Origin: Wickerhamiella versatilis
Taxonomy: Eukaryota
Length of the DNA stretch: 64,000 bases
Assembly: GCA_030867685.1 (NCBI GenBank)
Contig: JAQOWU010000001.1
Location: forward strand, 806,001-870,000
Direction of reading: 5' to 3'
This document shows positions 1 to 62,972 of the stretch, piece by piece. Made by a program: the position numbers and the translations under genes. Position 1 is the first letter of the stretch. Each line of letters begins with the position of its first letter. The notes under the pieces are model-generated. The model did not search any database, had not been told where the DNA came from, and saw only the letters and a program-made list of their open reading frames with translations.

Positions 1-185
1 GGATCATCATTAAAGCCTTGCGGCTTCCAGCCGAGTTGCTTTTCAAAAGGGGTTACCTCCTCATTATACCATTCGACGGTTGAGACACTATAGAATTTAT
101 CACGAACAACTTCAATTTCCATTATCAGCTGTTGCGACGGATGAAAGCTCTGCTGAACGTCAACGACCAGCAGAGCTTCCTTCAT
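1..185 (-). CDS. Isochorismatase-family cysteine hydrolase, N-terminal part (runs off the window edge; absent from the ORF track)
   Basis: Manual translation from ATG at 185 gives MKEALLVVDVQQSFHPSQQLIMEIEVVRDKFYSVSTVEWYNEEVTPFEKQLGWKPQGFNDD, open to base 1. ALLVVDVQ is the first catalytic-Asp motif of the family. Confidence 0.8.
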   Translation of the reverse strand, partial: MKEALLVVDVQQSFHPSQQLIMEIEVVRDKFYSVSTVEWYNEEVTPFEKQLGWKPQGFNDD

Positions 186-399
186 TGAGATGAGTAAGCG
201 AGAGTGACCATTTTGCTTCTGTCTGAGAATCAAAAGCAATGGAAAAATTAAGCAATAGCATCATGAATTCGACTTGCTGTAGCCTCTCATGCTCATTATC
301 CCATTTATGCTTGTCATCTATAGATTGAGTAATTTCACAAAACACTGTTGAGAAAAATCAAGAATTTTATTATATAATTTTTCATCAGACGAGGCTTTC

Positions 400-1503
400 A
401 TGGGAACTAGACTGAACAACGATGATGCATTTGCAGCGACTAATCGCGGTGGAATCATTGAGAATAAGCATAACATTCATGCAGCTATAGTAGATGGCAA
501 CGGTGACCTACTCTATGGTATAGGTGATCCATCTCGTGTCACACTTGCGCGGTCCGCAGTCAAGCCAATCCAGGCTTTAGCAATTTTGAAAACAAAAGCT
601 GATCAGTTGAGTGGATTCGACGATGCAGATCTGGCCTTGATGTGTGCTTCTCATAGCGGTGAGGCCCGTCATATCGAGAGAGCTCGCGATATGCTGTCTA
701 AGATCTCTGTCCATGAAAATGAGATGCAGTGTGGTGGCCATCCTTCACTCTCGACGCATGTGAACACTACATGGGCCAAGGAAGGGTTTGTTCCAACTCC
801 TTTGTGTAGTAACTGCTCTGGAAAGCATGCTGGTATGCTCGCAGGTTCTAAAGCACTTGGTGCTGATATCGGGGACTATCATCTGCCGAACCACCCAATG
901 CAAAAACTGGTGATGCAGACAGTGGCAGATGCATGTGATTTGGAACCCAACGAGGTTTTATGGGGGGTAGACGGTTGCAACTTACCTACACCTGCATTTC
1001 CGCTAGATCGTCTTGCTCGGATTTATGCAAAATTGGCTGCGGCTGCCGATAAAACTGATAATGTGGATGACAGGAATGGAGATTCGGCCAACCTTGGCCG
1101 TATCTACAATGCCATGGCCTCTTATCCAGAATTGATTGCTGGAGATGACCGATATTGCACTATACTAATGAAAGCATTCAACGGTGACCTCATTGGTAAA
1201 CTTGGCGCAGATGGCTGTTACGGTATTGGCATTCGTGACTCGGATGATACAAGGCGATTAGGCTCTAATAATGGACTTGGAATAGCAGTCAAGATTGATG
1301 ACGGCAGCATTGACGTGCTATATGCTGTTGTGTCAGAATTACTGGAACAACTTAATATCGGTACTGCTGAAAACAGAAATTGTCTTGAGTCTTTTCGCAA
1401 TATGAAACGACTGAATTCAAAGGGTATTGATGTGGGCGGAATATCATTCCACTTTAAGCCTCGATCATATCGGAAAACCGATACCGATTCAGGTGCAGAG
1501 TAG
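400..1503 (+). CDS. L-asparaginase, Rhizobium AnsA / class 3 type (Asparaginase_II family)
   Basis: Motifs RGGIIEN.H, RSAVKP (SxxK), CASHSG, NCSGKH, DGCNLP and KLGADG. Confidence 0.9.
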   Translation: MGTRLNNDDAFAATNRGGIIENKHNIHAAIVDGNGDLLYGIGDPSRVTLARSAVKPIQALAILKTKADQLSGFDDADLALMCASHSGEARHIERARDMLSKISVHENEMQCGGHPSLSTHVNTTWAKEGFVPTPLCSNCSGKHAGMLAGSKALGADIGDYHLPNHPMQKLVMQTVADACDLEPNEVLWGVDGCNLPTPAFPLDRLARIYAKLAAAADKTDNVDDRNGDSANLGRIYNAMASYPELIAGDDRYCTILMKAFNGDLIGKLGADGCYGIGIRDSDDTRRLGSNNGLGIAVKIDDGSIDVLYAVVSELLEQLNIGTAENRNCLESFRNMKRLNSKGIDVGGISFHFKPRSYRKTDTDSGAE

Positions 1504-1576
1504 AAAATAAAATTGAATAAAATAAATACTTCTCTCACTAAAAAACGCTAGTTTAAGAGGCTTTCGGGAGCTCTAA

Positions 1577-3324: not shown

Positions 3325-5403
3325 TTAATAGCTGTAAAATTCCTCAAAATATTGAAGATAATAACTTGATCTTGTAATACAAGTAGCCGCAGTTTGCCTC
3401 ATTTCGAGATTCATTCTGGATGGTCCGCAGCATAAGACCCCTATCGATCCACGACAGCCATCAACTTGTTTGTACAAGATTTCACTGAAATTGGGTTTAG
3501 CAGAAAGTGTGGGTAAAAGCGAGCTGCCATCGGTTGCTATTTTTCCATCGTGATTATAGTCTGAAGTAGATGGAGGAAGCGGATTCTTACTATATATGTG
3601 AACGTCGAATCCCACATCTTTCCATTTTTGTATTTCGTTATCAAAGAAATCTGTCGGACCGGTGACAGCCCAATGTATTTGCACCGAAATTGGAAAATAC
3701 CTGTTATAATGAGGCATTTGCCGAAGATAGCTATAGATGGCCGTAATTCCTATCCCACCGGCGAAACAGATTATATTCTCAAATCGAGGTAGATTTATTG
3801 ATCGGCCATAGGGACCTTCAATTCCTACAGGAACTGTATACACGGTATCGTTAGTTTCTGCATCTTGGACTTCCTTCAAAAGCTTAGACGAAAGGCCTTT
3901 TTGAGGTTTACACAATAATTTGACTGACTGGTCGCTCCAGTCATAGTCAATGACGGTGAAAGGGTGTGACTGCCAGAAAAAGAACCTATCGCGGAAATAA
4001 ATAAATACGTAGCAACCGTAAAACTCATCAACAAATTTTGTTTTCTGTTTCACATCTATTTTGAGAATTCCAGGAGAGGTTTCGGTACAAATTGCCTTCG
4101 CCAAGCCGCTGTCATATATTCTTACAAGTCTCATGGACCTATCGAAGCCCCAGAGTGCGACAAGAGTCCAGTATAAACCAAAACATTGTTTTGTGTACTG
4201 GAGATGAAAATACAGGGTGATCAATGATACAAGAGCTAGCACAATGTGGACTACAAGGAATACTTCATATGCCAGTGCTCTTATTTGCTTTTGCCCTTGA
4301 GTACACATAATCATAAATGAAATAGTTGCGACTACGCCAACTACCCAGTATGCTTTTCGCCACTCGAGTAGTAAACCGCTATGCATATACTCAATATTAT
4401 ACGCAATGAAGTGAATCAACACGTCGATCGTTGTTATCCGCGCGAGCCATCTATGCCAAGCATTGAAGGTATCTGGAGACCAGCCAGTCAGAAAAATCAA
4501 AAAGTTATTGCGGGCGGCAAAGAAGAACACAAAAGGCAGCTTGTACATGGCAAAATATCCTGATCGAAAGCCAAGTGCAGAGGAGATAAGGCCATACCTT
4601 GTTGGATAAACATATTCATTAGGAGTTACAGCCATTTTTACACCCATCAGAGTATAGTTAAGTACTGTTAATCCTAGCAACTGTAATGCTGTACCCCTCT
4701 GAATGTGACAGTGGAGCAAAGGTGAGTAGGTTCGAGAATAGAACAAAGGAGGCATGGTGAAAAACCGGCGAATATATCGTACCACACACAAATTTAAGAG
4801 AAAAGCCTCCCATGAGGGCACGAACCGAGCTAGAAAATTGATCAGCATACTAATACCCATGATACCAAAAATATAATATATAAGTGCTTGCCCATAGACA
4901 TCGCTGGCACGGCGATTCCAGTAATATTCTTCGGAAGGCTTGATCACTGGTTCCAGTGCTGATGAAGGCACGTGGAAAGGTAATTTACCAGACGCATCAG
5001 CTTCGGCATATGTCCAGTTTACAGGATGTGTCCCCAGATAATGATCTACATCCTTCCAACTGTACTCCAGAGATGCTCCATAATAGTTACAGATATAATG
5101 AAAGTACTTCCAACTAAACGCCTTTGCACTTTCTTGTTTAGAATGGCTACTGTTCATGAGTCCAGTTGCTGTATTAATGCAATCCGCAATGGTCATTAAA
5201 TATGTCAAGTCACCACACATATTCATATACTCGCTTGTACTACCCATTCCCGACATTTCGGATCCACTTGATAAACTCATTGTAGCGTTGTTCTTGTTTA
5301 TTATTTTGGAGCATGGTCGATAGAAATAGTCAGCCTCTGCCCATATAGTGTGGGCATGCAAAAGAACCACAACGAGTACACGTATATTTCCAGCCAATAT
5401 CAT
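3325..5403 (-). CDS. Ferric/cupric reductase transmembrane component (FRE family)
   Basis: N-terminal signal, AARNN, heme-ligand His pairs (WHRW...IHF; VHIV...FHL), FAD motif HPFT, EGPYG, NADPH motif AGGIGIT, CCGP and terminal EEFYSY. Confidence 0.92.
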   Translation of the reverse strand: MILAGNIRVLVVVLLHAHTIWAEADYFYRPCSKIINKNNATMSLSSGSEMSGMGSTSEYMNMCGDLTYLMTIADCINTATGLMNSSHSKQESAKAFSWKYFHYICNYYGASLEYSWKDVDHYLGTHPVNWTYAEADASGKLPFHVPSSALEPVIKPSEEYYWNRRASDVYGQALIYYIFGIMGISMLINFLARFVPSWEAFLLNLCVVRYIRRFFTMPPLFYSRTYSPLLHCHIQRGTALQLLGLTVLNYTLMGVKMAVTPNEYVYPTRYGLISSALGFRSGYFAMYKLPFVFFFAARNNFLIFLTGWSPDTFNAWHRWLARITTIDVLIHFIAYNIEYMHSGLLLEWRKAYWVVGVVATISFMIMCTQGQKQIRALAYEVFLVVHIVLALVSLITLYFHLQYTKQCFGLYWTLVALWGFDRSMRLVRIYDSGLAKAICTETSPGILKIDVKQKTKFVDEFYGCYVFIYFRDRFFFWQSHPFTVIDYDWSDQSVKLLCKPQKGLSSKLLKEVQDAETNDTVYTVPVGIEGPYGRSINLPRFENIICFAGGIGITAIYSYLRQMPHYNRYFPISVQIHWAVTGPTDFFDNEIQKWKDVGFDVHIYSKNPLPPSTSDYNHDGKIATDGSSLLPTLSAKPNFSEILYKQVDGCRGSIGVLCCGPSRMNLEMRQTAATCITRSSYYLQYFEEFYSY

Positions 5404-6494: not shown

Positions 6495-8321
6495 ATGCAG
6501 GCTAATATGGATGTTGAGAAAAAGCCTGGAGGAGAACAGGATCTACAAAATTCGTCAAGCTATGCAAGCTCCGAGGGAGTTTGGGAAAAAAAAGTTTTAA
6601 CCGGATACCGACCATATAGCCACTGGTATGATGGTTTTCGGCCGTCGAGTTTCCAAGAACCCAAGGCAAGTGAATTAGACTTTGACAGTCAAGGTATGTC
6701 GAGGACCGATATTGCCCAGGAAAGACTGTCACGCTCAACACCCGCGTTGAAGCGTCGCCACATAACTATGATTGCGGCATCCTCTTGTGTAGGTACTGGT
6801 TTATTTATTGGCTCGGGCTCTACTCTAGCTGCAGGTGGGCCTGCAGCACTGCTTATTGGCTTTGCTGTCCCGGGAATAGCTCTTCTCCTTACGATTCAAA
6901 ACACATCCGAGCTAAGTTTACGGTACCCAACTGTAAGTCCGTTTAGCCAACTATCCACAAAATTCTTAGACTCTTCGTGGGGGTTCAGCCTCGGCTGGCT
7001 CTATGCTTTCCAGTGGATGGTAACAGGTCCTCTTGAACTGATCGCTGCCGCAATGTTAACCCAGTATCAAACTTGACAGGAAGCAGACACTGGTGGTGCA
7101 GGCGTCAACCCAGTGGCATGGGTAGCCATACTGTATTTCTTTGAATTGTGTGTCCACCTGTTCGGTGGGTCGTTGGGTTATGCGGAGCTAGAATTCTTCA
7201 TTGCGTGCATCAAGGTGACAGCTACTTTGGCTTGGATCATATATTCAATAATATACAATGCAGGTGGTATTCCCGGTCATGGTTATATCGGAGGACACTA
7301 CTACTATGATCCTGGTGCATTTTTCAACGGTTTTAAGGGTGTGGCTAATGTAATGGTTTCAGCAGCATTTGCCTACGCTGGTACAGAAGTAAGCGCGTTA
7401 GCAGCAGCTGAGACGGCTAACCCTGTCCGTGCAATTCCATCCACAACTAGACAAACTTTCTGGCGTATTATCGTCTTTTTCGTTGTGGCAATTTGTATGG
7501 TCGGTCTCACGGTGCCCTATAATATAGGAAACCTTGGTAGTTCAACGGAAGGCTCAGGTTCACCATTTGTACGGATGCTGGAGCTTGCCGGAACTCACGC
7601 TCTTCCGACCCTAATGAACGCTGTTGTAATGTTTTCTGTATTTGGTGTTTCCAACGCTGCTATATACGCAGGATCCCGGACTCTTGTAGCCCTCTCTGTT
7701 AGTGGTAATGGGCCGAAGTTCCTATCTTACATCGATCGTCGAGGTCGTCCTCTAATTGCCCAATGCTGTATGCTGACGTTTGCCCTGCTATGCTTTGTGT
7801 CTGCAAGCTCGAAATATAATGATGTTTTCAACTGGCTCTATGCCTTCGTTGAGCTAGTCGCGATGTATGTTTGGGCCTCTATCAACTTCTGTCATATAAA
7901 GTTTAGGTTGGCTTGGCGTTATAACGGGCGATCAACCTCTGAACTTCTCTACGCTGCACCGCTGGGTATTTATGGTTCCATTATTGCTGGGTCAATCCTA
8001 GTCTTCATTATCGGAATAAATTTTTGGACAGCTGCAGCCCCTCCGTTGCCAGAAGGCGGGAGCCAGCTTACAAGTTCTGGCAGAGTTCAGAACTTCTTCC
8101 AGCAAAATCTCTCTGTACCGTTTGGATTGGTAATTTATGCGATTCACAAAATTTATTGGAAGAAGAAGTACAATAATTGGGGATATGTCGGTGTTAAGGA
8201 TATTGACCTGGATGAAGGTGTGCGTGACATAGACTATGACGTTGTCGAGGCTGAAAATGAAAGAGCACGGGAGAGGGGACGAAAGAATTTCTTGATTCGG
8301 TTGGGCCATATCTTCTGCTAG
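6495..8321 (+). pseudogene. Yeast amino-acid permease (YAT/GAP1 family) interrupted by one in-frame TGA
   Basis: ORFs 6495-7076 and 7113-8321 share a frame and read ...AAAMLTQYQT*QEADTGGAGVNPVAW... with TGA at 7074-7076. Motifs RHITMIA..VGTGLF, FAYAGTE and FWRI are intact. Confidence 0.75.
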
Positions 8322-10767: not shown

Positions 10768-13158
10768 ATGTCTAAACCATCCGGCAATGCAGGGATGCAG
10801 AACGGATTTGACATCTCAAAAGCTGATAGTCTCAATGAAAGGGAGCGGTCTCTAGTCACGAGAAGGAGCAAGCTGCTGGGACCATCCTACAAGCTCATGT
10901 ATGAGCACCCAGTCGAATTCGTACGCGGAGAGGGTGTATATCTCTATGACGCAGATGGAAATTCTTATTTGGATTGTTACAACAACGTCTGTTCTGTAGG
11001 TCATTGCAATCCTCGCGTAGTGAAGGCAGTATCGGATCAGTTGGCCACATTGAACACGCATACACGTTACATGAGTGAGAAGATCCTGGACTTTTCTGAA
11101 AAGTTACTGGGTACATTTGAGCCTGAACTGGGCCATGTGATGTATGCTTGTAGTGGAAGTGAGGCCGTGGATCTGGCACTTAGGACTGCAAAGTTCTATA
11201 CCGGTGGCACTGGTATAATCGTCACGGACTACGCATACCATGGTACTACTGCTGCTGTATCAGCTATCTCACCTTCGCTAGGTGAGTACACTCCCATCGA
11301 CTTGCATGCTCGTACTGTACGTTCACCTTATGCCTATCGCGCAGGCGACGGTGTGGATGTGGAGCAGAGACTTGCCGACGACGTTGAATCAGCTATCAAG
11401 GACATGAATCGCCATGGAATTAAATTTGCTGGATTCCTTGCCGATAGCATTTTTTCTTCTGACGGTCTTTTCACTGCACCAAAGGGATTCCTGCAAAAAA
11501 CAGTCGACGTTGTGCACAAGTACGGCGGTCTTTATATAGCAGATGAGGTCCAACCAGGATGGGCTCGTACAGGGAACCATATGTGGGGATATCAAAATCA
11601 TGGTATCGTACCCGATCTTGTGGTTATGGGAAAACCCATGGGTAACGGCATGCCTATTTCTGCCATGGTAGCCCGTCCTGAATACCTGGAGGACTTTGGC
11701 AAAAAGGTCCGCTATTTCAACACATTTGCAGGTAATCCTGTAGCAATTGCTGCTGCAAATGCTGTATTTGATGAACTGACCACTGGAGGTTTAAAGGAAA
11801 ACTGTAGAGTTGTTGGTGATTATTTGCTAAAAGGATTCGAGAAAATCTCCACGAGATTTGCCGAAATCGGTGATGTTCGTGGTGCAGGTATGTTTTTTGC
11901 TGTAGAGTTTGTCAAAGATCCAGTCACGAAGGAGGCTGATGATCAGTTAGCACGAAAGGTAGTGGCGGAACTACGTGAAAGAAGAATTTTGATAAGTACC
12001 ACTGGAAAACTTGGCAACAGCTTGAAAATCCGACCATTGCTGAGCTTTACCCATGAAAATGCGGACGTTCTTTTGAAAGAATTCGAAGATGCATTAAAGA
12101 GCAGTATAGCTGCGTTGTATCCTGGCAAGAAGAACAACAGCTCTTTGACCGCAGAAAAGCATTTTCTTGACAACGATTTCGCAGTGAATGTTCTCAAGAG
12201 TTACTACGGAATTGAAGCAGTCGAGGCTAAGAAATTGAACAGCGAGCGCGATGAGAACTTTCTTGTCCATGCCATTAATCCCGACCGCAAAATCACGATA
12301 AAGTTTGCTCATCCCTCAGAAGATCCACTTGCAAGTAGCTTCCAAACTGATATTTTGCGATATTTGAATACGCATGACCCTTCTTTGCCAGTACAAAAGA
12401 TAGTCCCGAGCACATCTGGCGACTCTCAAATTCGTATTAACTGTGATGGTATCATGAGAACTGCGAGAGTGGTGACTTTTCTAGACGGTCAGTTACTATC
12501 TGATGCCCCAAGAAGCACTGTGCAGGCTGAAAATCTTGGTAAAATAGCAGGAAGAATTGCTAAAGCCCTGGAAGGGTTTAGCCATCCTGGACAGGATCAC
12601 TTACTGCACTGGGATGTTCAGCATGCTTCCCAGGTTCGAGTATATCTTAGTGCTATCAAGAACCCCAAACATAGGGAACTTCTGGAAAAATGCCTTAGCC
12701 ACTTCGAAGATTATGTGAAGCCCAAGCTGGATAAGCTCCGGAAGCAGGTAATCCACAATGACTTCAGTCCGCAAAATTTGCTCGTGAGTGCTAAGGATCC
12801 AGATCAAGTCACAGGCGTTCTTGATTTCGGTGATTCTGTGTATACACCGCTCGCCATCGATCCTGCGGTTGGGGCAGCGTACCAACTGGGGAAGGATGAT
12901 GATCTCCTCAAGCGTGCAGTTTCTTTTGTTAAAGGGTTTCATTCTACGAATCCCCTCACTAAGGAAGAACTCTCGCTTATTTATGATTTGGTTGTCACGC
13001 GTACGGTTATCCGAATAGCCATTTCAACCTGGCGTGCTGAAAAATTCCCAGATAATGCTGCATACATACTGCGAAACTCCGCCAATGTATTTGATCAGTT
13101 TGAACAGCTTGTTGCTTTGAAAGACGGAGAAAAGGCGTTCAGCTCTATCTCGCAATAG
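10768..13158 (+). CDS. Fusion of a class-III PLP enzyme (AGXT2L/PHYKPL phospho-lyase-like) and an aminoglycoside-phosphotransferase-fold kinase (hydroxylysine-kinase-like)
   Basis: N-terminal half: YLDCYNNV, CSGSEA, YHG, IADEVQPG, MGKPMGNG (PLP Lys), YFNTFAGNP. C-terminal half from about nt 12150: SERDENF, VIHNDF...NLL, DFGD. No stop codon between the halves. Confidence 0.88.
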   Translation: MSKPSGNAGMQNGFDISKADSLNERERSLVTRRSKLLGPSYKLMYEHPVEFVRGEGVYLYDADGNSYLDCYNNVCSVGHCNPRVVKAVSDQLATLNTHTRYMSEKILDFSEKLLGTFEPELGHVMYACSGSEAVDLALRTAKFYTGGTGIIVTDYAYHGTTAAVSAISPSLGEYTPIDLHARTVRSPYAYRAGDGVDVEQRLADDVESAIKDMNRHGIKFAGFLADSIFSSDGLFTAPKGFLQKTVDVVHKYGGLYIADEVQPGWARTGNHMWGYQNHGIVPDLVVMGKPMGNGMPISAMVARPEYLEDFGKKVRYFNTFAGNPVAIAAANAVFDELTTGGLKENCRVVGDYLLKGFEKISTRFAEIGDVRGAGMFFAVEFVKDPVTKEADDQLARKVVAELRERRILISTTGKLGNSLKIRPLLSFTHENADVLLKEFEDALKSSIAALYPGKKNNSSLTAEKHFLDNDFAVNVLKSYYGIEAVEAKKLNSERDENFLVHAINPDRKITIKFAHPSEDPLASSFQTDILRYLNTHDPSLPVQKIVPSTSGDSQIRINCDGIMRTARVVTFLDGQLLSDAPRSTVQAENLGKIAGRIAKALEGFSHPGQDHLLHWDVQHASQVRVYLSAIKNPKHRELLEKCLSHFEDYVKPKLDKLRKQVIHNDFSPQNLLVSAKDPDQVTGVLDFGDSVYTPLAIDPAVGAAYQLGKDDDLLKRAVSFVKGFHSTNPLTKEELSLIYDLVVTRTVIRIAISTWRAEKFPDNAAYILRNSANVFDQFEQLVALKDGEKAFSSISQ

Positions 13159-13425: not shown

Positions 13426-13791
13426 ATGCCTAAGGTCTGTTACGGAAGCGGCCCTGGACTACCACTGTCCCCTGCTGTGAGAGCTGGAGATTTCGTATAC
13501 ATTGCAGGCCGTGTCCCTTCCATCGGGGGTAAAACTGTTGAAGGTACCATCCAGCAGCAAACTGATGCTGCCTTGCTCAGCCTCGACGAAACACTGAAGC
13601 TGGCAGGATGTGACAAGGATGATGTTGTACGAGTCTTCGTCATTCTGACTGATCTTTCCGAATTTTCTGGCTTCAATGAAGCATATGCCAAATACTTTGA
13701 TAGTAACCCACCTGTTCGTACAACTATTGAGGCAAAGCTCGCCGGTACCTTTAGGGTTGAAATAGAGGCGGTTGCATACAAACCATTGTAA
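13426..13791 (+). CDS. RidA/YjgF/UK114 family imine deaminase
   Basis: PLSPAVRAGDFVYIAG, FNEAYAKYF..NPPVRTT (catalytic Arg) and VEIEAVAY. ATG at 13426. Confidence 0.9.
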   Translation: MPKVCYGSGPGLPLSPAVRAGDFVYIAGRVPSIGGKTVEGTIQQQTDAALLSLDETLKLAGCDKDDVVRVFVILTDLSEFSGFNEAYAKYFDSNPPVRTTIEAKLAGTFRVEIEAVAYKPL

Positions 13792-29380: not shown

Positions 29381-29421
29381 CTATAGTGCCAGGGAAGAAC
29401 CGTCATAAAGGAAATCAGAGC

Positions 29422-36452: not shown

Positions 36453-36618
36453 GGGCAAATTACATAAGCAGTCTGATAAGAGCTCGACGTTTATTCGTGC
36501 AGAATAAACTGATGAGAACCCTGTGGTCACCTAGAAATCGTATGCAGTCATAAAATATTAGCTTGGATATTCTTGTCTAAATAACAACCTTACATAGCAA
36601 CCATGTGCTAGGCGGAAT

Positions 36619-38403: not shown

Positions 38404-38975
38404 CGTTGGAACGTCACAAAGTTACGACACTATGTAATGCCAATTTCTTATCTTTCATGATGCACCCACCCATACCCATGTGATAAGTGCTTGGCAGCAA
38501 ATAGTCCTTTATCTCGCAGCAGTTCCCCCGCCATGAGGGTTTATTTACTATTTACAGGAAATTTATAGTCCCTAGCTTGACGTTCCCACAGGGTCGCCGG
38601 AACTCTATTCTATTCAAAATAAAGTTCGCGAGCAGCAGAGCAATATATGCTTTCTCAGTATCAAGTCGCTATTAGGTAATGAAGGTAGTGGGCAATGGGC
38701 CTCGCCAAGAGACATTTGAAGTCTCCCCTTCCCTCCACCCCACTTCACGGTGGAGGCTGGGCATGAGCACATGAGCATCAAACAAATAGTTAGGCGGAAA
38801 CTTTTTCTAACTGGAATATGTAAATAAAAGTACAAATACGGGGAATTATGGGAATCGTTATTATACGTTTTTCGTCAAAGAATCCGTCGGAAGGTGAAGT
38901 ACCTGAGTTTTCAGGGTGGCTACTGCATTACAATAAATCATGAGGTTTTTGGAGGATCCTCCAGTCAGCTTCTAT

Positions 38976-46873: not shown

Positions 46874-47929
46874 ATGACCAGTGAAGTATTGCTGCCTCTA
46901 TCCGACAATGGTCTGCCAGCAGCTGCTGGAGCTGCTATTTCCCAGCCAACTCCGAAGAGGAAATGGAAATACCAGCCGACAAAGGTGAAATTTGATCCAA
47001 GAAAGCATTTAGATATCGGATCACCATCCTGGAAAAAGACAATGAAAGATTTCGGGTATGAAAAGCATGATGGCATCAGTGATTTTGCCGCTGCCGAGCC
47101 TTTTCGCATGTTTAGCGACGAGGCTATCCGACTAATCCGAAACGATATACTGTCTGAACCTGTCCAAGAAAATCATGTTATTTGCTGTGAAAGAAATCCC
47201 TACATGCTTCGTGGCTACGCCCATAAGCATACACCTTTCATATACGAGGCCTGTACCCACCCAAGCGTGCTCAAGGCTATTTCCGACGTGGTTGGAATTG
47301 ACCTCGTCCATGTTCATGATTATGAAGTGGGGCACACGAACATACAGCTTGGACATAAAGGAAGAGAGGGAGTTCGGGAGCTATCCGATACGCCGACTCT
47401 TCCCCTACCTCCTTCAGAGAGATTGGAGCCGAGTCAATATGATAATCGAATGGTTGATGATTGGCACTTTGACCAGGTGCCGTTCGTTGCCGTTTTAATG
47501 CTCTCCGACACAACTGGTATGGAGGGTGGTGAGACGGCTGTCATGGCAAGGGATGGTACGAGGGATGTGGTCCCAGGACCATCATTTGGAAAAGTTGCGG
47601 TTTTGCAGGGTTCCAAGGTCAAGCATGCAGCATTACGTGCTTTGAACTGCCCGGAGCGCATTACGTTGGTACTAAGTCTACGCCCGCGGGATGTATTTGC
47701 AGAGGATTCTACGAACCTATCAAACGGGAGGGACCATGATGATTGGGATAGTGTGGGAAAATCGTGGCTCGACTACCGGTTTCAGATTCTCGAGGAGCGA
47801 TGTAGACTTGAGCGAGAAAGACTGCGCTCTGCAGACAAATTTGATAAGGACGAGGTCATTAAGTTCTGCAAGTCACAGATAAATTATTTCGAGTTCACGG
47901 CCCGTGAGCTTTTCCCCGATTTTGAATAA
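46874..47929 (+). CDS. Conserved fungal protein with a probable Fe(II)/2-oxoglutarate dioxygenase fold
   Basis: FDPRKHL, AEPF..FS.EAI, WHFD (HxD), GGET and LQG..VKHAAL...ERITLVLS.RP (distal His, Arg). Confidence 0.65.
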   Translation: MTSEVLLPLSDNGLPAAAGAAISQPTPKRKWKYQPTKVKFDPRKHLDIGSPSWKKTMKDFGYEKHDGISDFAAAEPFRMFSDEAIRLIRNDILSEPVQENHVICCERNPYMLRGYAHKHTPFIYEACTHPSVLKAISDVVGIDLVHVHDYEVGHTNIQLGHKGREGVRELSDTPTLPLPPSERLEPSQYDNRMVDDWHFDQVPFVAVLMLSDTTGMEGGETAVMARDGTRDVVPGPSFGKVAVLQGSKVKHAALRALNCPERITLVLSLRPRDVFAEDSTNLSNGRDHDDWDSVGKSWLDYRFQILEERCRLERERLRSADKFDKDEVIKFCKSQINYFEFTARELFPDFE

Positions 47930-48226: not shown

Positions 48227-50032
48227 ATGTCGGGGACTGAACCGGTAGATACCTGTGTGAACCGGCAAATTCCCTATCAAAGAACGAAAACAGCATGCCT
48301 CAATTGCCGAAAGCGTAAAAGTAGGTGCGAGTTTGACAGGGAAAACGATACCTGCAAGAGATGCCGTGAGTACCATTTATCCTGCGATGTGCCCGAATTT
48401 CACAGGAGGGGTGGCTACGCAAATGTGATCGCTGGGAGAATCAAATCCAAAAAAAATGGGGAAGGCAAAATGTATAGCGGTGACAGAACGAATCCTATAC
48501 TTTCCAAAAGTGAGGTACTGGCTAATGAAATGTACAATGCAAATGATGCCATAGAAATACTAAATCGGGCATCCTTTAAGCCCAATGGATTCGCATCCCG
48601 TGCTATGAAGCCTTCAAATGCGTTGCCATCTGTCTCAGCCATTGGGGATATTTCCCTAAATGGACCGAGAAACGGGATTTTTTCAGCACCTTCAGCAATT
48701 TTTGAAGGAATTCTCACCGCTGAAGAAACATTCGAAGCTGTAAACTTCTTTTTTTCTCAAATCGCACCCTTTTACGCCCCCTTCATACCATCTGAGTATC
48801 TCGATATGAAACGACTATCCCAAGAGCAGGTACTTTTCGCCGTGATTTGTCTTATTGGTGCTCGCCGTTACGATGTTAAGTCGCATTGCGTTATGCACGA
48901 AAAGTTATGGGAACGCTATTGCGAAATTTTGGGGAGATTAATGTTAGATTGCCCTGATTCTCAGGTGCCACCGCTATTATATGCTATGATTGTTATGACA
49001 GAGTGGTTTCCTGGAGTCTTTCTACGCCCTTCAGACACAGCTGGAGGCGCCTTAAGGAGTTATACCCGTATATGCTGGCCTATATATGGACACGTGACAC
49101 GACTCGCCCAATATACCGGCTATCTCGATCATGATATACCAGGAAAGCTTGCTGTTTACTACACAGACCATTTATTATCTTCACGATTAGGACAAAGGTC
49201 AATGCTAGACCACACATCCGATATGGAAAGTCAATTTCCATCTGAAGCCCTACCCCATTGTTCGATAGGCTGCAGGGCAAGAGTGGATCTACTGAAACTA
49301 TTTCATTTAGTTAACCACACTCTTTACCGTTCTCGAAAAGATACCAAAGAGCTGGTTAAAGCAGGTCACCATCTCCATATTTTGCGGTCTCTTCAGCCCG
49401 TCGTTGAGCGATGGAAGGTAGACTACTCTGAAATATTTCGCAGCAAGGCATGGCCTGATCGGGCGACCATCTTTGAATTTTGCCATTTCGAACTTTATTT
49501 GTATGCTGTAGTGCTCATACCTTGGCAAAGCTCTCGGTTTGGTATACTGGCATTAGAAGAAACACGAGAATTTCTTAACATTGCGATAGATGCTGCCAAA
49601 TACATCGTACGCCATGAGACATCTCCTGATCGGCCGGTTCGATTGGAGTACTCGCCAATAGGATGGATCACACGCCTTCTTCATGCATCAGTGTTCCTGT
49701 CGAAAACTTTATTAATCCCTTCGATATGTCGGACAGCAGAGGAACAGAAAAATATTATTAGCACGCTTCGAAAAGCTGCCACGGTAATGGCAGTTTTACC
49801 ACCGGAAGATCATTATATTTATTCAAGGCCTATAAACAGAATGCTCGACAAGTTTGAAAGTCAGAGAGCCGCGCGTGAGTCAACATCCTGGTCCCATAAT
49901 GGAGACTCTCCTGACAGTGTTCATTCAAGATCCTCTGGAGGTGCATCCAATAACAATGGAAATATTTGGGATATGCTTTTCAATGATGAAGTTTTCCGAG
50001 CTTTGGATGGCGTTGATAACCTTGCAATATGA
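48227..50032 (+). CDS. Zn2Cys6 transcription factor, ARO80-like
   Basis: RTKTACLNCRKRKSRC........CKRC......C....RRGG, later MTEW.P and RLG motifs. First ATG is at 48227. Confidence 0.85.
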   Translation: MSGTEPVDTCVNRQIPYQRTKTACLNCRKRKSRCEFDRENDTCKRCREYHLSCDVPEFHRRGGYANVIAGRIKSKKNGEGKMYSGDRTNPILSKSEVLANEMYNANDAIEILNRASFKPNGFASRAMKPSNALPSVSAIGDISLNGPRNGIFSAPSAIFEGILTAEETFEAVNFFFSQIAPFYAPFIPSEYLDMKRLSQEQVLFAVICLIGARRYDVKSHCVMHEKLWERYCEILGRLMLDCPDSQVPPLLYAMIVMTEWFPGVFLRPSDTAGGALRSYTRICWPIYGHVTRLAQYTGYLDHDIPGKLAVYYTDHLLSSRLGQRSMLDHTSDMESQFPSEALPHCSIGCRARVDLLKLFHLVNHTLYRSRKDTKELVKAGHHLHILRSLQPVVERWKVDYSEIFRSKAWPDRATIFEFCHFELYLYAVVLIPWQSSRFGILALEETREFLNIAIDAAKYIVRHETSPDRPVRLEYSPIGWITRLLHASVFLSKTLLIPSICRTAEEQKNIISTLRKAATVMAVLPPEDHYIYSRPINRMLDKFESQRAARESTSWSHNGDSPDSVHSRSSGGASNNNGNIWDMLFNDEVFRALDGVDNLAI

Positions 50033-50239: not shown

Positions 50240-50470
50240 ATGCCGCACGTAGTTTTAAAGCTCTGGAAGGGAAGATCGGATGAGACGAAAACAAAAATCG
50301 CTGAAGCAATCGCCAAAGCTGCGCATGAAGCTACGGGCAGTCCAGAAGAGACGATCAGTGTAAGCATTGAAGATTACCCTAAGGAGGAATGGATGGAGAA
50401 GGTATACTATCCTCAAATAATGGACAAGCAGGACACTCTATACGTAAAACCACAATATGATAATATTTAG
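50240..50470 (+). CDS. 4-oxalocrotonate tautomerase family protein (PptA/YdcE-like)
   Basis: ATG at 50240 gives MPHVVLKLWKGRSDETK, exposing catalytic Pro-1. Also ISVSIED...EW..KVY.P.I......LY.KP.Y; 76 aa. Confidence 0.9.
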   Translation: MPHVVLKLWKGRSDETKTKIAEAIAKAAHEATGSPEETISVSIEDYPKEEWMEKVYYPQIMDKQDTLYVKPQYDNI

Positions 50471-53860: not shown

Positions 53861-54781
53861 ATGATTCAGCTCCTTTTGTCTTTGGGTGTCACTGCGGCAC
53901 TACCTGTCGGTGGTGGTGATCTCGTCAGCCGCAGTTTTCCAAATGTCTGCCAAGACGTTAATGATTCCCCAAAGCCAACGTATGTCGCTGTTCAGCCTTC
54001 GCCGATTACTGGACCGATCCAACCCGGATCCCTTCAAGGTGTGAGCAATTTCCGTGATTATACCAGCGGGGTAAAGAATGGTGCTCCATTCAATGATATC
54101 TCTACCTCTAGCGGCAAGCAGCTGAAGCATGGTATAATATATCGGTCGAATCAGCTAAGCAATGCTACAGATGCTGATATCTCAACTTTGGGTGGCGCAA
54201 ATATTACCAGGGATTTCGATTTTAGATTGTTTATTGAGCGAGCAACAGGCCCCGATAGGGTATTTGAATCTACTGAATATGTGGTTGATGATGTCCTGGG
54301 TCCATGCAATGGTTTAGGTGTTGACGGTTCTATTCTCAGTCAACTTGGTAGTGATGTTGTTGAGACGCTCGAATCTTTTGCTAATGGAACTTTCAGCTTG
54401 AGAGATAACATTGTCTACAGCACAATGTATAAGGCAATGGCTGTATACGAAGGTGCTAATGTCGCTTACCACAGACTTTTCCATGATATTGCTTATGAAA
54501 GTACGCCGATAGTATACCACTGCACTGCCGGCAAAGATCGAACTGGAGTAGCGACTGCATATCTCCACAGAATCCTGGGGGTCGATCTGGACACTATAAA
54601 TGATGCTTACTTGGCTAGTAACTATTACCTTGGAGAATCTGATGCCGTCAAACAAGAATATTTGCAGGCCACTTGGGATGTAATTGATCAGGTGTGGGGA
54701 AATTTTGATAACTTTGTTAAGAAGGGATTGAAGCTCGACGAGAACGATATCAAGGCTCTTCAGGACAAATTGCTAGAGTAA
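53861..54781 (+). CDS. Secreted IphP/Y_phosphatase3-type cysteine phosphatase
   Basis: Leader MIQLLLSLGVTAA, NFRD, IYRS..L, DFR...ER and the P-loop YHCTAGKDRTG. Confidence 0.9.
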   Translation: MIQLLLSLGVTAALPVGGGDLVSRSFPNVCQDVNDSPKPTYVAVQPSPITGPIQPGSLQGVSNFRDYTSGVKNGAPFNDISTSSGKQLKHGIIYRSNQLSNATDADISTLGGANITRDFDFRLFIERATGPDRVFESTEYVVDDVLGPCNGLGVDGSILSQLGSDVVETLESFANGTFSLRDNIVYSTMYKAMAVYEGANVAYHRLFHDIAYESTPIVYHCTAGKDRTGVATAYLHRILGVDLDTINDAYLASNYYLGESDAVKQEYLQATWDVIDQVWGNFDNFVKKGLKLDENDIKALQDKLLE

Positions 54782-54913: not shown

Positions 54914-55816
54914 ATGACTGATAGCAAACGGTCACAAGGGATGAAAGAGATCTTTGTATCTTTTGGAGTCGATATAGATGCTGTGTCTGGCTGGCTCGGC
55001 TCATATGCCGGTGAAGACTCTCCAGATGATATATCGCGTGGCTTGTTTGCAGGTGAGGTAGGAGTACCCCGTCTACAGAAGCTATTTGAGCGATACGACA
55101 TAAAAGCTACTTGGTTTGTACCAGGTCACTCTGCAGAGACATTCCCATCGGAAGTGAAAGCATTGGCAGAGTCAGGCCATGAACTAGGACTTCACGGTTA
55201 TAGTCATGAGAATCCTATATCCATGTCCCGCGAACAGGAGGAGGTGATCCTTGATAAGGGTATTGAGCTTTTATACGCTATTTCTGGTAAGAGGCCTACA
55301 GGGTATGCTGCACCATGGTGGGAATTGAGCCCAAATACTAATGAACTCTTACTGAAAAAAGGTGTGAAATATGACCACAGCCTGATGCATAATGACTTCA
55401 CTCCCTATTACAATCGTGTAGGGGACAGCTGGACAAAAATTGATTATTCGAAGCATCCAAGCGCTTGGATGAAGCCACTCGTCCGCGGCGTTGAAACAAA
55501 TTTAGTAGAGATACCAGCAAATTGGTACTTGGATGACCTGCCACCCATGATGTTCATTAAGAAGTCACCAAATAGCTTTGGATTCACCAATCCCAGAGAT
55601 ATCGAGCAACTCTGGCGTGACCAGTTCGACTGGGTTTATCGCGAAATGGATTATGCTGTTTTCCCGATCACAATTCATCCAGATGTGTCAGGTAGGCCTC
55701 AAGTGCTGCTCATGTTGGAAAGGCTAATAGAATATTTCAAAGGCCACGAGAGCGTAAAATTTGTTACTATGAACCACATTGCCGATGACTTTATAAAGCG
55801 CCAACCACGGTCGTAG
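54914..55816 (+). CDS. CE4 polysaccharide deacetylase, Helicobacter PgdA (HP0310)-like subgroup
   Basis: [67 protein letters not shown] and [12 protein letters not shown]. Alternative ATG at 54941. Confidence 0.9.
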
Positions 55817-56274: not shown

Positions 56275-57816
56275 TTAAGGTATGATTGTATTAAGCCCTT
56301 CCGTCAATATGTACCAAGCTTTAGAAATTTGCTCCGCGGACGACGGTAAAATGAATTTGCTGAAACATGGAATAGACGTTTCTATCAATATTAGGTCAGA
56401 TCGGGCTCCTTCACGCATTGGATACTTGCCAAGAATGGTGAAAAGGACCTCATATGCCAAGTCCACGAATAGCGAGTCCAGTGCCTCGTATTTTCTCGAA
56501 GAACGCGTATGAACTTGGGTTAATTCAATCGTTCGCCGGGCTGAGACAGCACACATTTCAGCAGCATATTCATTGTTACCTGAGAAGGCCAGATGGAACC
56601 ACAGCAGACCCTTTAATGCACAGAATATAAGATGCATATGGGCAATTCGGAAATCTGTGAGTTCCTCAGGGGCTAATTTTTGTAATTCTAAGGGTAGTCC
56701 TTCGAACCAGCTGTCTAGTTCAGAGTTCAAGGTTGTGACGAGGGCTGCATTTTCCGTGCTTGGACCTGAAAAGTATTTATAAACCTTTTCATAAAACCTT
56801 CCAAGCTCAGCACTGTATCCTAATACTGAGAAACCACTGGAAAATGACCACTCCGGCGATGGAGCAGTAATAAAGTCCATTGCTAAATGTGGCGGACTCC
56901 CCGTAACCAAGAAAATAGATGTGTTGAACTGACAGAGTGTCCACCAAACCGTAGAAAGCCGTTTGGCCAAAACGGGGTCGAAATTCTGGTACGTTGCGCT
57001 TCGGTGAAGCCCCATCCCTATTCCGTAGGACTGTGCAATTGTTGATAAATACTTCATGAGCGATGTCACACCAAACAGACTCGCGGTGATGACCATTAGC
57101 ACAAGTGCTCGGAACTCGTCAGCGCTACCTTCTGATATCGCACAGAGCGTTGCAATACGAAACGCCTGCCCAAATGCGACTCCAAATATGTGGGAATACG
57201 GCATTGTTCCGTCATTGATTGCCATTAGGACAATTCCTGCGGCAAAAAGATTATGCGCAAAGGGGGACATGTTCAACAGGTCTCCCTTGCTAAGTATGAC
57301 ACAGTACAAATCGCTTTTCAAGTTGAACTTTTCGAACCAATGCTCAAAGCAGGCCTTGACAGTGACGGCATCTAGAGCATAGTCACTTTGAGAGTATGCT
57401 ATCACTTCCTTCAAGTATTGTTCCTCCGCCTTTTTATAACGCACTGAAGCACCGACAAAGTTTTCAAATAAAAATAATTGGCCTGTACGGACAAATACAT
57501 CATTAATATAGGGGAGCATAAGTTTGTTACTCAAGCAGGGGTCCCATTGAGACTCTATCGCAGACGCTGGGCGTTGAGGTGGCGAAAAACCAAACTTATA
57601 ACGTTCATCTTTACTAGTACTGGTGGGAGGGATCATAACATCTAGTGAGGTATATACTGGTCCATTGGGTGGCTTTTCCTTCGACCCCACCCTGGAGGAG
57701 TATATACACTTCAGGTTTGATATCTGGCATGACTTACACGGTTCATTCCAATCACAACGAATCTTACGGCGTCGGCATTGATCACAGGAGTACGTTACTC
57801 GTTTCTTTCTGACCAT
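56275..57816 (-). CDS. Zn2Cys6 transcription factor
   Basis: SCDQCRRRKIRC.....CKSC......C and MGLHR...VWW (Fungal_trans region). Confidence 0.88.
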   Translation of the reverse strand: MVRKKRVTYSCDQCRRRKIRCDWNEPCKSCQISNLKCIYSSRVGSKEKPPNGPVYTSLDVMIPPTSTSKDERYKFGFSPPQRPASAIESQWDPCLSNKLMLPYINDVFVRTGQLFLFENFVGASVRYKKAEEQYLKEVIAYSQSDYALDAVTVKACFEHWFEKFNLKSDLYCVILSKGDLLNMSPFAHNLFAAGIVLMAINDGTMPYSHIFGVAFGQAFRIATLCAISEGSADEFRALVLMVITASLFGVTSLMKYLSTIAQSYGIGMGLHRSATYQNFDPVLAKRLSTVWWTLCQFNTSIFLVTGSPPHLAMDFITAPSPEWSFSSGFSVLGYSAELGRFYEKVYKYFSGPSTENAALVTTLNSELDSWFEGLPLELQKLAPEELTDFRIAHMHLIFCALKGLLWFHLAFSGNNEYAAEMCAVSARRTIELTQVHTRSSRKYEALDSLFVDLAYEVLFTILGKYPMREGARSDLILIETSIPCFSKFILPSSAEQISKAWYILTEGLNTIIP

Positions 57817-60382: not shown

Positions 60383-61990
60383 TTAATCCTGTCTCGCTTT
60401 AGTGGTTTGCTTATCATTATGCCGCACGCTAACGGCCTCCATAACCTCCACATATTCATCCTCCCCCAATGTTGAAACTGGGCCTCGATAAATCTTTCGA
60501 GCATACAGATAATAATAAATACCGGCCAAAATCCACACGCCAAATGTTACCACGCTTGACCAGTTCATGGCAGCTGGACTCGTCACAGGAATGTCGGCTG
60601 GGAAGATGGAAATCGTAAATACATAAAAGATCAAATATGTAGCGGCCAGGGTTCCACATATTCGCGATCCCCACCTACCCATATAGAAAGGGCCGGGATT
60701 GAACCCAGTCTTCTCATCACCATAAATGACTCGAAGCAGGATGGGAACCGACCAAACAAAATATAGTGATGTGGCCACCATGGAGAACAAGGCGTTGGCT
60801 GCGGTGGCCCCTGCAAGTATGAGCAGACTTATCAATGCTGCCATTACGCATACGAAAACAAGACCAAGATATGGGATGCCGGACTTGGTTACCATTTTCC
60901 AGAACCTGCTGAAAGGCAGGGCATTATCTCGAGCCAGTGCATAAGCAAGACGACTGGTGGACAAAGTGGACGAACATCCCATGATATACTGGATGGCACA
61001 GAAAAAACTGACCAAGGCAGTGCTCCAGCGCTGTCCCAAGCATCGAGAAATCACGTTGGCGATGGGGAGGATGGCATTTTGCAGGCCGGAAACTCCCTCC
61101 GGTGTGTTATCGACAACAGCAGCCAGAATGCACATCACCACCCAGCCAACAAAAAGCATTAATGTACTGGACAACATCATGGAAAATGGTACAGCCTTTC
61201 GCGCATCCTTGGCCTCCTCGGCAAGGTGAGGTGCCGCAGCCAGGCAGCAGGTAGTCCATACACACCCCATTGTGGACATAAGGAACGACATTCCATATGG
61301 CCAATTTGTATAGTTGTCAGTATTGCCAAATACGTAGGAAGCACTATTAAGATGTATGCCTTTACGCTTCAGACCCACAGGAAGGCCTACAATGAGAAGT
61401 CCCACGGCAACTATATTCAAAAAGATGCTTAAGAATTGAATTTTTGACATGATTCGGCTTGGCATGTATCCGAGTATAACAGTCAAAAGTAGTGCTGCGG
61501 CCTGAACACCATAGGTTTCCCCATTAGTGGCAGTGAAATTTCTATTCATTTCAACAGCAGCCAGGAGTTGGTTGGTAAATCCCAGAAGTGTTGATGCACC
61601 TCCGGCAATAAGGCCACAGAGTTCACCGTAGCCTACAAAAAAGCTAAGAACCTTTTTATATTTTGGGGGAGCAAGTTTGAAGGTCCAGTAGTACCACCCT
61701 CCTGCCGTGGGCATCGAGCTTGCCAGCTCACTTGAGCTTGCAGCCACACAGCAAAAAAATGCAGCTGGTAGTACCCAACTCCAGGAAAAGCCCACCCCAC
61801 CAGCAGCCACAGCATCCGTCAAAACGCTGGCTATACTCGGGGCAAGAGACATAACTGAGAAACTGAGCCCGAAGATCTCAAGCATTGAATACTCCCTCGC
61901 AAGATCTTGCTTGTATCCCATTTCGACCATCGCTGCCTCATCACGACTTATTTCTATTCCATCCTCACTATCTGGGGAGTATTTCTCCAT
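60383..61990 (-). CDS. APC GABA/polyamine-type permease (UGA4/TPO5 family)
   Basis: MGYKQDLAR, ELASSMPTAGGWYYW, HLAEE, SRLAYALARD.ALPFS and PGPFYMG. Confidence 0.9.
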   Translation of the reverse strand: MEKYSPDSEDGIEISRDEAAMVEMGYKQDLAREYSMLEIFGLSFSVMSLAPSIASVLTDAVAAGGVGFSWSWVLPAAFFCCVAASSSELASSMPTAGGWYYWTFKLAPPKYKKVLSFFVGYGELCGLIAGGASTLLGFTNQLLAAVEMNRNFTATNGETYGVQAAALLLTVILGYMPSRIMSKIQFLSIFLNIVAVGLLIVGLPVGLKRKGIHLNSASYVFGNTDNYTNWPYGMSFLMSTMGCVWTTCCLAAAPHLAEEAKDARKAVPFSMMLSSTLMLFVGWVVMCILAAVVDNTPEGVSGLQNAILPIANVISRCLGQRWSTALVSFFCAIQYIMGCSSTLSTSRLAYALARDNALPFSRFWKMVTKSGIPYLGLVFVCVMAALISLLILAGATAANALFSMVATSLYFVWSVPILLRVIYGDEKTGFNPGPFYMGRWGSRICGTLAATYLIFYVFTISIFPADIPVTSPAAMNWSSVVTFGVWILAGIYYYLYARKIYRGPVSTLGEDEYVEVMEAVSVRHNDKQTTKARQD

Positions 61991-62036
61991 ATCGATGATA
62001 AGAGATGATTACGTCACAATCTATCTTAAATTCATT

Positions 62037-62972
62037 ATGCGTGACATTGCACGCGACGTTGCAAGGGGCAGCAATGTCCTTGAGATGGAATTGGTGAACC
62101 ATCTGGATACACTAAGGCATGCCTCCCCAGGAGAGAATAAGATCACTTATGGGGATACCGTATTCCCCACCTTCTTATTCCTCTCAGGCCTAGGGCCTGT
62201 GAAGCCAAAACGGTCAGCGACACTAGTAGGCCTTGGACTGGCCTACAATTGGCTGCAAGACAATGATAAGAGCAAGCTACGACTGTTTGGAGTCCTACAG
62301 AGGATCGGTTTATCGGGGCTGCTGCTAGAAGCCGCCCATGGGACTACCAGCATTTGGTTTCCCACGGGCTGCTTGGCCTTATGGTCGCTGGTTACATATG
62401 GATTAACTCCTACTAGGCCTTACGCATGCCAAACAAAATCAGCCCAGGGAATTTTAGATCAGCAAATCACCAAGTTGCTGCCATGGCTCAAGACATATGC
62501 AGATGGCTTTGATCCCGAGGGTCTACTAGGAACTCTCACCTCGGCGGCCTCTCTATGGTTTGGTCACTGGCTTTCCTGTGCCTCTCTTTCGACTAAGCAG
62601 TCATGGATACTTGGTACAGCCTTGACCGTGCTGGGAACATTGACTGGCCACTTCCTTGCAACCACATGTCCCACAAATAAGCCATACTGGACGCCCACAT
62701 TTGCCGTTGCAACCAGTGGTATTGCCCTATTAAAACTGCAAACTGCACGAATAGTGGTGAGCTTGGTACCTAAGCCTTTTTATGTTTTGTGTGAAGTGCT
62801 CGGGAAACGGTCGCTCGAGGTGTATTTGCTGTCAGCTATGGTTGATCAATCCCTTATTCGGGAAAGGCTCACCAAGAGGGTTGGTGCTGTGGCATCTGCG
62901 GGAATCTGTGCTTCAGCGCTATCATTCGCTGCTTGGGTCCTTGTGAATTATAATATTCGAATTTCGGTGTAG
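62037..62972 (+). CDS. HGSNAT-like membrane acyltransferase (compact bacterial-type length)
   Basis: D..RG.....MELVN, LRHA, D.VFPTFLF.SG, GVLQRI, FDPEGLL.TL and NK.YWTP.F. Likely ATG at 62037 (or 61995). The ORF track's upstream extension is antisense overlap with the permease. Confidence 0.75.
   Translation: MRDIARDVARGSNVLEMELVNHLDTLRHASPGENKITYGDTVFPTFLFLSGLGPVKPKRSATLVGLGLAYNWLQDNDKSKLRLFGVLQRIGLSGLLLEAAHGTTSIWFPTGCLALWSLVTYGLTPTRPYACQTKSAQGILDQQITKLLPWLKTYADGFDPEGLLGTLTSAASLWFGHWLSCASLSTKQSWILGTALTVLGTLTGHFLATTCPTNKPYWTPTFAVATSGIALLKLQTARIVVSLVPKPFYVLCEVLGKRSLEVYLLSAMVDQSLIRERLTKRVGAVASAGICASALSFAAWVLVNYNIRISV

Follow-up and report, generated by a model that had tools for sequence, protein, structure and literature searches.

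The DNA analyzed here, called the window below, is a stretch of 64,000 nucleotides from the yeast Wickerhamiella versatilis (C1:806001-870000, in a genome of 9.88 Mb and 8 contigs). It contains 33 open reading frames (ORFs) of at least 120 aa after removal of shadow frames, plus a 75-aa tautomerase gene and the 5' part of an isochorismatase gene at the edge. An ORF at 38976-40502 (minus strand) joins a fungal cell-wall domain to a bacterial aminotransferase, and another at 10768-13158 (plus strand) joins a phospholyase-like domain to a kinase-like domain in the opposite order to that in bacteria. A further gene outside the window carries the same cell-wall domain on an unrelated bacterial enzyme. 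The first-pass annotation presented the window as a landing zone for bacterial genes with a nitrogen-scavenging role, an observation that is real and largely published. What goes beyond the published picture, within the literature searched, are the cell-wall-domain chimeras and the reversed phospholyase-kinase fusion. These genes are plainly present, and the apparently repeated grafting of a host domain and the reversed fusion merit follow-up for the functions that their sequences suggest.

The ORF at 38976-40502 encodes a single protein of 508 aa in which sequence matches assign aa 7-165 to fungal cell-wall paralogues and aa 159-492 to bacterial enzymes. Its fungal half (40008-40502, minus strand) consists of a signal peptide and a DUF7907-like cell-wall domain with nine copies in the genome. 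The bacterial half (38976-40007, minus strand) is a PtaA-like (PRK09105) pyridoxal phosphate (PLP) aminotransferase with 51-56% identity to bacterial proteins: 51-53% to Halotalea and Carnimonas and 56% to the homologue P0134. The full-length fusion is present in three cluster members of 507-508 aa, and both halves have the same G and C content at third codon positions (GC3, 0.58). The enzyme half keeps the catalytic motifs NPNNPTG, VDEAY, FSK and RIS and scores 392 bits against the PtaA model NF051461 (cut-off 500) and 430 bits against PRK09105 (cut-off 444). Whereas 102 of the 119 PtaA-like homologues listed have an RR motif of the twin-arginine translocation (Tat) type within their first 50 residues, the chimera has no Tat leader; a hydrophobic signal followed by the ~145-aa cell-wall domain stands in its place. 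Its enzyme half also contains seven N-glycosylation sequons, while the same listed homologues average 0.95 and have at most 3. Single-sequence folding of the whole chimera gave no usable model (predicted local distance difference test score, pLDDT, 35.5).

Of the nine genomic copies of the cell-wall domain, three have Ser/Thr tails and glycosylphosphatidylinositol (GPI)-type ends, one is the domain only, two are fused to enzymes and three lie in frames too short for more than the domain. The domain in the window has no match to DUF7907 (PF25484) at an E-value of 0.05; four of five paralogues match weakly at 15-25 bits (cut-off 27), and one paralogue attains the cut-off in a separate scan. In the atlas, the chimera's domain lies near Ascomycota cell-wall and DUF7907 clusters (0.89), which serves as a lead only. 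A model of the domain built from 96 sequences (pLDDT 82.6) resembles a beta-trefoil, with a best Z of 8.6 and a root-mean-square deviation of 3.3 over 124 aligned residues. The leader domain is therefore a predicted beta-trefoil, with Z scores of 6-8.6 in a range that common arrangements also reach; a Foldseek search with the domain gave no match at E 0.001.

The other enzyme fusion lies on contig C8 at ~4,446.7-4,448.0 kb (L042:583-1905, minus strand) and combines the same cell-wall domain with a bacterial PRK09291-type short-chain dehydrogenase/reductase (SDR), the fusion itself being placed at C8:4,447.2-4,448.0 kb. The SDR half scores 336 bits against PRK09291 (cut-off 265) and is 56% identical to a Streptomyces protein. 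This architecture recurs in P0280, a diverged protein whose leader domain is 51% and whose SDR is 82.5% identical, and which retains both shared sequons. Of 204 representatives carrying the domain, the best 150 include 61 with tails of at least 60 aa; to judge from tail composition, and from Pfam matches searched for in 39 of these, P0132 and P0280 alone carry an enzyme. A search for longer proteins with the domain alignment returned three proteins only and is weak, since it missed the known SDR chimera. Both chimeras are unreported in the literature searched, although the per-gene annotation of the supplement of PMC13376923 may mention them. A keyword search of the accessible text of PMC13376923, PMC9044934 and PMC5897096 found neither chimera mentioned, and function words had no match in the available part of that supplement.

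The ORF at 10768-13158 encodes a class III PLP phospholyase-like domain (aa 5-448) followed by an aminoglycoside-phosphotransferase-like kinase (aa 454-796). The two parts are 73% (10768-12111) and 49% identical to Brenneria genes, their motifs are intact, and the nearest solved structures of the PLP domain are the phospholyases 5g4i and 6tor. The counterparts in Brenneria, Pectobacterium and a Klebsiella plasmid are separate genes, with the kinase gene ahead of the phospholyase gene by a gap of 2 bp and an amino-acid ATP-binding cassette (ABC) transporter beside them. The kinase is upstream in all seven loci that hold both genes (from 16 loci in a sample of 400 gammaproteobacterial genomes), and among the 120 matches listed 34 fusions are kinase-first and 14 have the yeast order. 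Domain trees using 63 of 124 and 51 rows place each domain of the yeast-order proteins with the unfused genes of gammaproteobacteria (100% support), without uniting these proteins in a single resolved clade; a single origin of the yeast-order fusions is not rejected (approximately unbiased test, p-AU 0.785, 36 rows). The kinase and phospholyase thus appear to have been adjacent operon genes that were transferred together. A bacterial kinase-then-phospholyase operon would have been turned into one phospholyase-kinase polypeptide, and a tandem or circular intermediate would account for the reversed order. The most likely activity of the product is phosphorylation of a hydroxylated amine or amino acid, followed by release of ammonia and phosphate, a two-step kinase-phospholyase chemistry reportedly described by Veiga-da-Cunha in 2012. 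No report of a phospholyase-kinase fusion in this reversed order was found in the literature searched.

The genome has three copies of this gene. A paralogue with 58% identity at C1:747687-750143 (L007:1687-4143, plus strand; published expression 74 transcripts per million, TPM) has an N-terminal extension that resembles a mitochondrial presequence. The third copy, at C3:74562-77443, is split into a lyase part with one internal TGA, a gap of ~555 bp and a kinase part; its relatives P0012 and P0045 are fused. The same-order fusions P0010, P0011 and P0045 have long Ala/Arg/Ser-rich leaders, and these three proteins may come from fungi outside the clade, which would mean onward transfer.

A RidA-family imine deaminase follows the fusion at 13426-13791 (plus strand; PF01042). 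A derivation of the lyase-kinase and RidA from one operon is rejected: the Brenneria, Pectobacterium and Klebsiella loci hold no RidA, and the best RidA relative is alphaproteobacterial and sits in another context, a sugar-ABC operon of Phyllobacterium (52%), with identities of no more than 30-39% in the two Pectobacteriaceae genomes. RidA is apparently a separate transfer from another donor, and it could clear the imine product of the neighboring phospholyase-kinase.

Contig C1 measures 1,115,855 bp and has a 41-bp tandem repeat of telomere type at its end, which places the window 246-310 kb from the chromosome end. Housekeeping genes on C1 stop near 742 kb, and accessory genes extend beyond to at least 970 kb; from there to the end the contig was covered by spot samples. 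The enterobactin genes B-D-F-C-E-A-H at C1:795-805 kb adjoin the window on the left, so that the window lies directly downstream. In the accessible parts of Kominek et al. (bioRxiv 10.1101/399394), entH is reported only in C. (W.) versatilis, and the figure legends place a class II asparaginase at the 3' end of the operon. The assignment of the DNA to a yeast of the Wickerhamiella/Starmerella clade is thereby borne out, as this operon stands immediately to the left and the asparaginase at its 3' end, and entH narrows it to W. versatilis or a very near relative.

Brito et al. 2026 (PMC13376923) describe for this species long End domains that are rich in AT, show weak expression and accumulate transferred genes; published labels, orthogroups and expression values given here are those in the accessible parts of that paper. 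The window corresponds to rows 5333-5364 of its table, in the scaffold03 End domain at 1,710,062-2,156,295 (446 kb). This mapping uses gene spacing (offset ~980-982 kb) and orthogroup copy numbers; the scaffold02 rows do not match the window and served only as a control. GC content in 8-kb bins is 0.40-0.47 from 730 kb compared with 0.45-0.46 at 706-730 kb, 1.5-kb samples elsewhere scatter between 0.37 and 0.52, and the published rows of the window mix R0 and R1. The 11 bacterial models of the window have a median TPM of 27, with two below 5. No tRNAs or notable repeats were seen in the window. The window is an arbitrary 64-kb slice of a published End domain, and as a region it adds nothing to the published picture. 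The subtelomeric location suggested earlier holds in the wide sense of a terminal End domain, but a narrow subtelomere is ruled out by the distance of at least 246 kb to the end.

Among the 32 published models of the window, 11 are labeled bacterial and two Pezizomycotina transfers. These labels cover 11 of the 13 genes and domains named in the first-pass annotation, the tautomerase and the NagX-like protein being labeled native; the edge isochorismatase is counted as labeled by inference, as its model falls in two orthogroups. All 13 are intact ORFs at the expected places and in the expected families (Pfam, NCBIfam), and most are bacterial transfers according to the 11 published labels and their best relatives. 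The absence of introns, offered as a bacterial mark, is undiagnostic because the native genes of the window are single ORFs too. Bacterial labels are more frequent in the window (11/32) than in the adjacent Middle domain (0/33, p=1.4e-4), and their frequency is level with the other rows covered of the same End domain (32/111, p=0.66) and with part of another End domain (20/88, p=0.24). A distinct landing zone or local transfer hotspot is therefore ruled out, since the density exceeds that of the core but not that of the rest of the domain.

Several donors are indicated, as best relatives span Pectobacteriaceae, Halomonadaceae, rhizobia, Sphingomonadaceae and actinobacteria; Brenneria at 73% is the best bacterial relative of 10768-12111 and Carnimonas at 53% that of the chimera's aminotransferase. 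Most of these relatives come from a plasmid collection and denote kinship, not donor identity. Two stretches, 54914-55816 (76-77.5%) and 10768-12111 (73%), lie above the 70% identity ceiling stated in PMC13376923. Such high identities are what bacterial contamination or a chimeric assembly would produce, yet the bacterial genes alternate with fungal permeases and transcription factors and have host-like GC3, seven of ten proteins looked up have exact copies in other assemblies, and the published long-read assembly has the same gene order together with RNA-seq counts. Contamination is accordingly extremely improbable. The window is very probably an ordinary End-domain slice built up by piecemeal transfers from many donors, in which some genes were rebuilt by fusion. 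Dispensable metabolic genes of many bacterial and fungal donors would have been inserted singly and then kept, and the result would be a nutrient-scavenging toolkit that leans locally to nitrogen compounds and not a single pathway or regulon.

The nitrogen theme can be set against a stronger claim, namely that the window is an island of its own, selected for nitrogen scavenging, and that its transferred enzymes, permeases and Zn2Cys6 factors are co-regulated under nitrogen limitation. The six transporters for nitrogenous compounds and the four Zn2Cys6 factors named earlier were all found, one transporter (6495-8321) with an in-frame TGA at 7074-7076. Genes for nitrogen compounds make up 17 of 34 in the window compared with 17 of 86 in the flanks (p=0.0015, using our own post-hoc classes), and p rises to 0.059 under strict classes that drop four enzymes of uncertain substrate; the test is also lenient because the window was chosen for this trait. 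A modest enrichment is thus what stands of the nitrogen-scavenging claim. The block at 27776-40502 is almost silent in both published media (TPM 0.5-9), and the raw counts of its permeases, factor and hydrolase are 4- to 50-fold up in defined medium, a pattern that fits a repressed module but falls short of proof. GATAA motifs are in excess upstream of nitrogen genes (41 in 16 genes versus 24 in 17 others, p=0.03 uncorrected), whereas GATAAG motifs are not (10 in 16 versus 8 in 17, p=0.78). The ratio of published raw, unnormalized counts in yeast nitrogen base (YNB) and yeast extract-peptone-dextrose (YPD) media does not separate 16 nitrogen genes from 38 others (p=0.21). No clear signal of co-regulation therefore appears in the published counts and GATA motifs. 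TPM values spread from 1.8 to 145, enzymes of similar kinds occur in the flanks, and the transfer density is no higher than in the rest of the domain. The claims of an island and of selection are not supported beyond the modest nitrogen lean, and an island of this kind is unlikely.

For the cell-wall-domain chimeras, a scheme of origin can be proposed. A native cell-wall gene would have been duplicated, and one copy, stripped of its Ser/Thr tail and GPI signal, would have fused in frame to the PtaA-like aminotransferase, with the yeast signal peptide substituting for the bacterial Tat leader. Given a yeast signal instead of a Tat leader, entry into the secretory pathway is the most likely fate of the protein; it would most likely be glycosylated and end up within the wall or beyond it, and there act as a transaminase on amino compounds outside the cell. 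Fusion to a cell-wall domain may in this way export a bacterial enzyme. Gene content, position, domain origins, domain order and intact motifs are direct observations, from which we infer secretion, activity, substrates and the order of events. The broader proposal is that the lineage repeatedly grafts bacterial enzymes on a native beta-trefoil domain, which would supply the export signal and possibly wall retention too, that the aminotransferase of the window is working, secreted and switched on at nitrogen scarcity, and that the SDR chimera is a second graft. With all of its parts taken together, this proposal is tentative and rather unlikely.

Several points weigh against this interpretation of the fusions and the window. 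The main doubt concerns the cofactor. Bacterial PtaA is exported by the Tat system, folded and with PLP bound, according to the accessible text of PMC6206403; because Tat carries a folded PLP protein and the yeast secretory pathway lacks such a route, an exported chimera could be free of its cofactor, and the same doubt could cover an exported NAD(P)-dependent SDR. The aminotransferase chimera falls below the PtaA cut-off (392 of 500 bits) and is barely expressed, at a published TPM of 1.76 across two media, under the cut-off of 5 used in that paper, and one member of the SDR-chimera cluster is frameshifted into pieces of 150 and 300 aa. The fusion junction is spanned by one contig in each of two studies, with ends near the gene ends, a weak hint only: these contigs come from two of four runs, the RNA label of the runs is a guess and none of the chimera-bearing runs is recorded as RNA. 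For signal peptides, the assignment used hydropathy and alignment instead of a predictor. More widely, the eukaryotic hosts of the 14 same-order phospholyase-kinase proteins are assumed, the mapping onto the PMC13376923 table is positional and approximate for a few rows, and the origins of most genes rest on published labels and best bacterial matches.

The low expression, the cofactor problem and the frameshifted SDR allele would equally be expected if the cell-wall-domain fusions were neutral by-products of rearrangement, little translated and without extracellular activity, and selection on End-domain xenologues is reported to be relaxed in the accessible part of PMC13376923. Neutrality does not readily explain why the SDR chimera has been kept in two lineages, with leaders 51% alike and both shared sequons retained, why the aminotransferase half has gained sequons or why one domain was used twice with unrelated enzymes. 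A dN/dS of 0.061 for the published model 04138 also speaks against it; the comparison partner is possibly non-chimeric, as the matches to the aminotransferase fusion included no diverged orthologue that is itself chimeric. Neutral origin is a doubtful explanation that nevertheless has to be taken seriously.

The fusions bear on an open step of cross-kingdom transfer, the acquisition of a new address by a bacterial protein. The export route of a bacterial Tat substrate is unavailable in yeast, and the placement of one host domain in front of both a PtaA-like enzyme and an unrelated SDR suggests a solution that can be used repeatedly. It would be unusual for a eukaryote to secrete a PLP enzyme in active form. 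The reversed phospholyase-kinase, in its three copies, offers a second testable case in which an operon pair became one gene.

These genes can be compared with several known systems. Like the End domains in PMC13376923, the window belongs to a large chromosome-end region with many transfers from bacteria and Pezizomycotina; that work differs in giving each gene one origin, and the accessible main text is without the terms 'chimer', 'fusion' and 'signal peptide'. The enterobactin operon transfer (bioRxiv 10.1101/399394) is similar in that an operon with entH adjoins the window and an asparaginase lies downstream, whereas the genes of the window have unrelated donors and do not form one operon. 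Chimeras produced by horizontal gene transfer (HGT) are a known class, described in arthropods in PMC13389597, which cites 37 in 11 unicellular species; there, too, host and transferred intervals share one ORF and the host part has non-chimeric paralogues. The present cases are from yeast, a word that does not occur in the accessible text of that paper, and one host domain family is combined with two unrelated bacterial enzymes and would supply an export signal. The chimera shares with PtaA (PRK09105; PMC6206403) the PLP aminotransferase fold and motifs, and its nearest relatives have Tat leaders. It differs in having a fungal signal and cell-wall domain in place of the Tat leader and in scoring below the cut-off; no pyoverdine pathway is implied for the chimera, and none was looked for. 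The bacterial amino-alcohol/hydroxylysine kinase and phospholyase pairs (5g4i; human ETNPPL 6tor) have the same two domains as the yeast fusion, which is lyase-first while every bacterial case seen is kinase-first.

The remaining genes of the window begin with the 5' part of an isochorismatase-family hydrolase (1-185, minus strand; PF00857, E=1e-6; 59% to a Novosphingobium plasmid stretch), the complete gene of which is C1:805682-806185, beside entH. The class II asparaginase at 400-1503 (plus; PF06089; 62% to Rhizobium) was absent from the first-pass list; its donor is bacterial or filamentous-fungal, and the orthogroup taken as its own has 34 Pezizomycotina members. TspO (2390-2845, minus; PF03073) corresponds by position to the published HGT_Bacteria 04155. 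The TGA at 7074-7076 cuts an otherwise complete amino-acid permease assigned by family match (6495-8321, plus), which may be a pseudogene, a strain allele or a sequence error. A family match also identifies a major facilitator superfamily permease of the anion:cation symporter type at 15915-17435 (plus), which we take to be DAL5-like. An alpha-glucosidase at 22376-24097 has no signal peptide; the accessible text of PMC9044934 describes maltase activity of W. versatilis as extracellular without a predicted signal. A nucleoside hydrolase (24429-25364, minus; PF01156; 50% to Sinorhizobium; HGT_Bacteria 04146) and a DmpA/peptidase S58 protein (26063-27193, minus; PF03576; 52% to Klebsiella plasmids; HGT_Bacteria 04145) follow.

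The biuret-hydrolase-like isochorismatase at 27776-29380 (plus) scores 218 bits against NF050097, below the cut-off of 370; its C-terminal half has no Pfam match, and the published table lists it as 04144, native, with a TPM of 0.57. Next to it lie a Zn2Cys6 factor (29422-31560, minus; this and the three others by family match), an NCS1 nucleobase permease (31980-33593, plus; PF02133) and a CE4/PuuE-like hydrolase found by profile matches (33799-34701, minus; HGT_Bacteria 04141). PBP4, a D-Ala-D-Ala carboxypeptidase (35025-36452, minus; TIGR00666 372 bits, cut-off 108; 48.5% to Nonomuraea; 04140, TPM 2.7), has the SxxK, SxN and KTG motifs. It carries a short hydrophobic leader, as does the IphP-like tyrosine phosphatase at 53861-54781 (plus; PF13350; 33% to Streptomyces; HGT_Bacteria 04130), which keeps its HCxxGxxRT motif. 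Counting the chimera, three neighboring bacterial enzymes may thus be exported, and PBP4 could act on bacterial wall fragments. A general amino-acid-permease-like transporter (36619-38403, minus; family match) and a Zn2Cys6 factor (41636-43282, plus) flank the chimera; over the permease, chimera and factor (36619-43282) GC is 0.47-0.49 and GC3 0.48-0.58, compared with ~0.40 in the neighbors.

Further to the right are an APC-family amino-acid/amine permease (43767-45374, minus) and a protein without a Pfam match (46874-47929, plus; TPM 0.34), published as Pezizomycotina transfers 04135 and 04134, and a Zn2Cys6 factor (48227-50032, plus). The 75-aa tautomerase (50243-50470, plus; PF01361; 47% to Sinorhizobium) is labeled native in the published table (04132 by position, TPM 205); its atlas clusters are all bacterial (0.91), and by its sequence relatives it is probably a bacterial transfer despite that label. 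A CE4 polysaccharide-deacetylase-family hydrolase (54914-55816, plus; HGT_Bacteria 04129) has its closest relatives in Agrobacterium and Rhizobium, and is followed by a Zn2Cys6 factor (56275-57816, minus) and an APC permease (60383-61990, minus; family match). The divergent NagX/HGSNAT-like membrane protein at 61995-62972 (plus) matches weakly, at 51 bits against a cut-off of 480, is 23-32% identical to plasmid proteins and is labeled native in the published table. Other bacterial-type genes in the flanks encode a TetR regulator (L014:6940-7554, minus), an acyltransferase-3 (L006:4048-5175, plus), a flavohaemoglobin (L020:2624-3760, minus) and an acetolactate decarboxylase (L021:8320-9132, plus).

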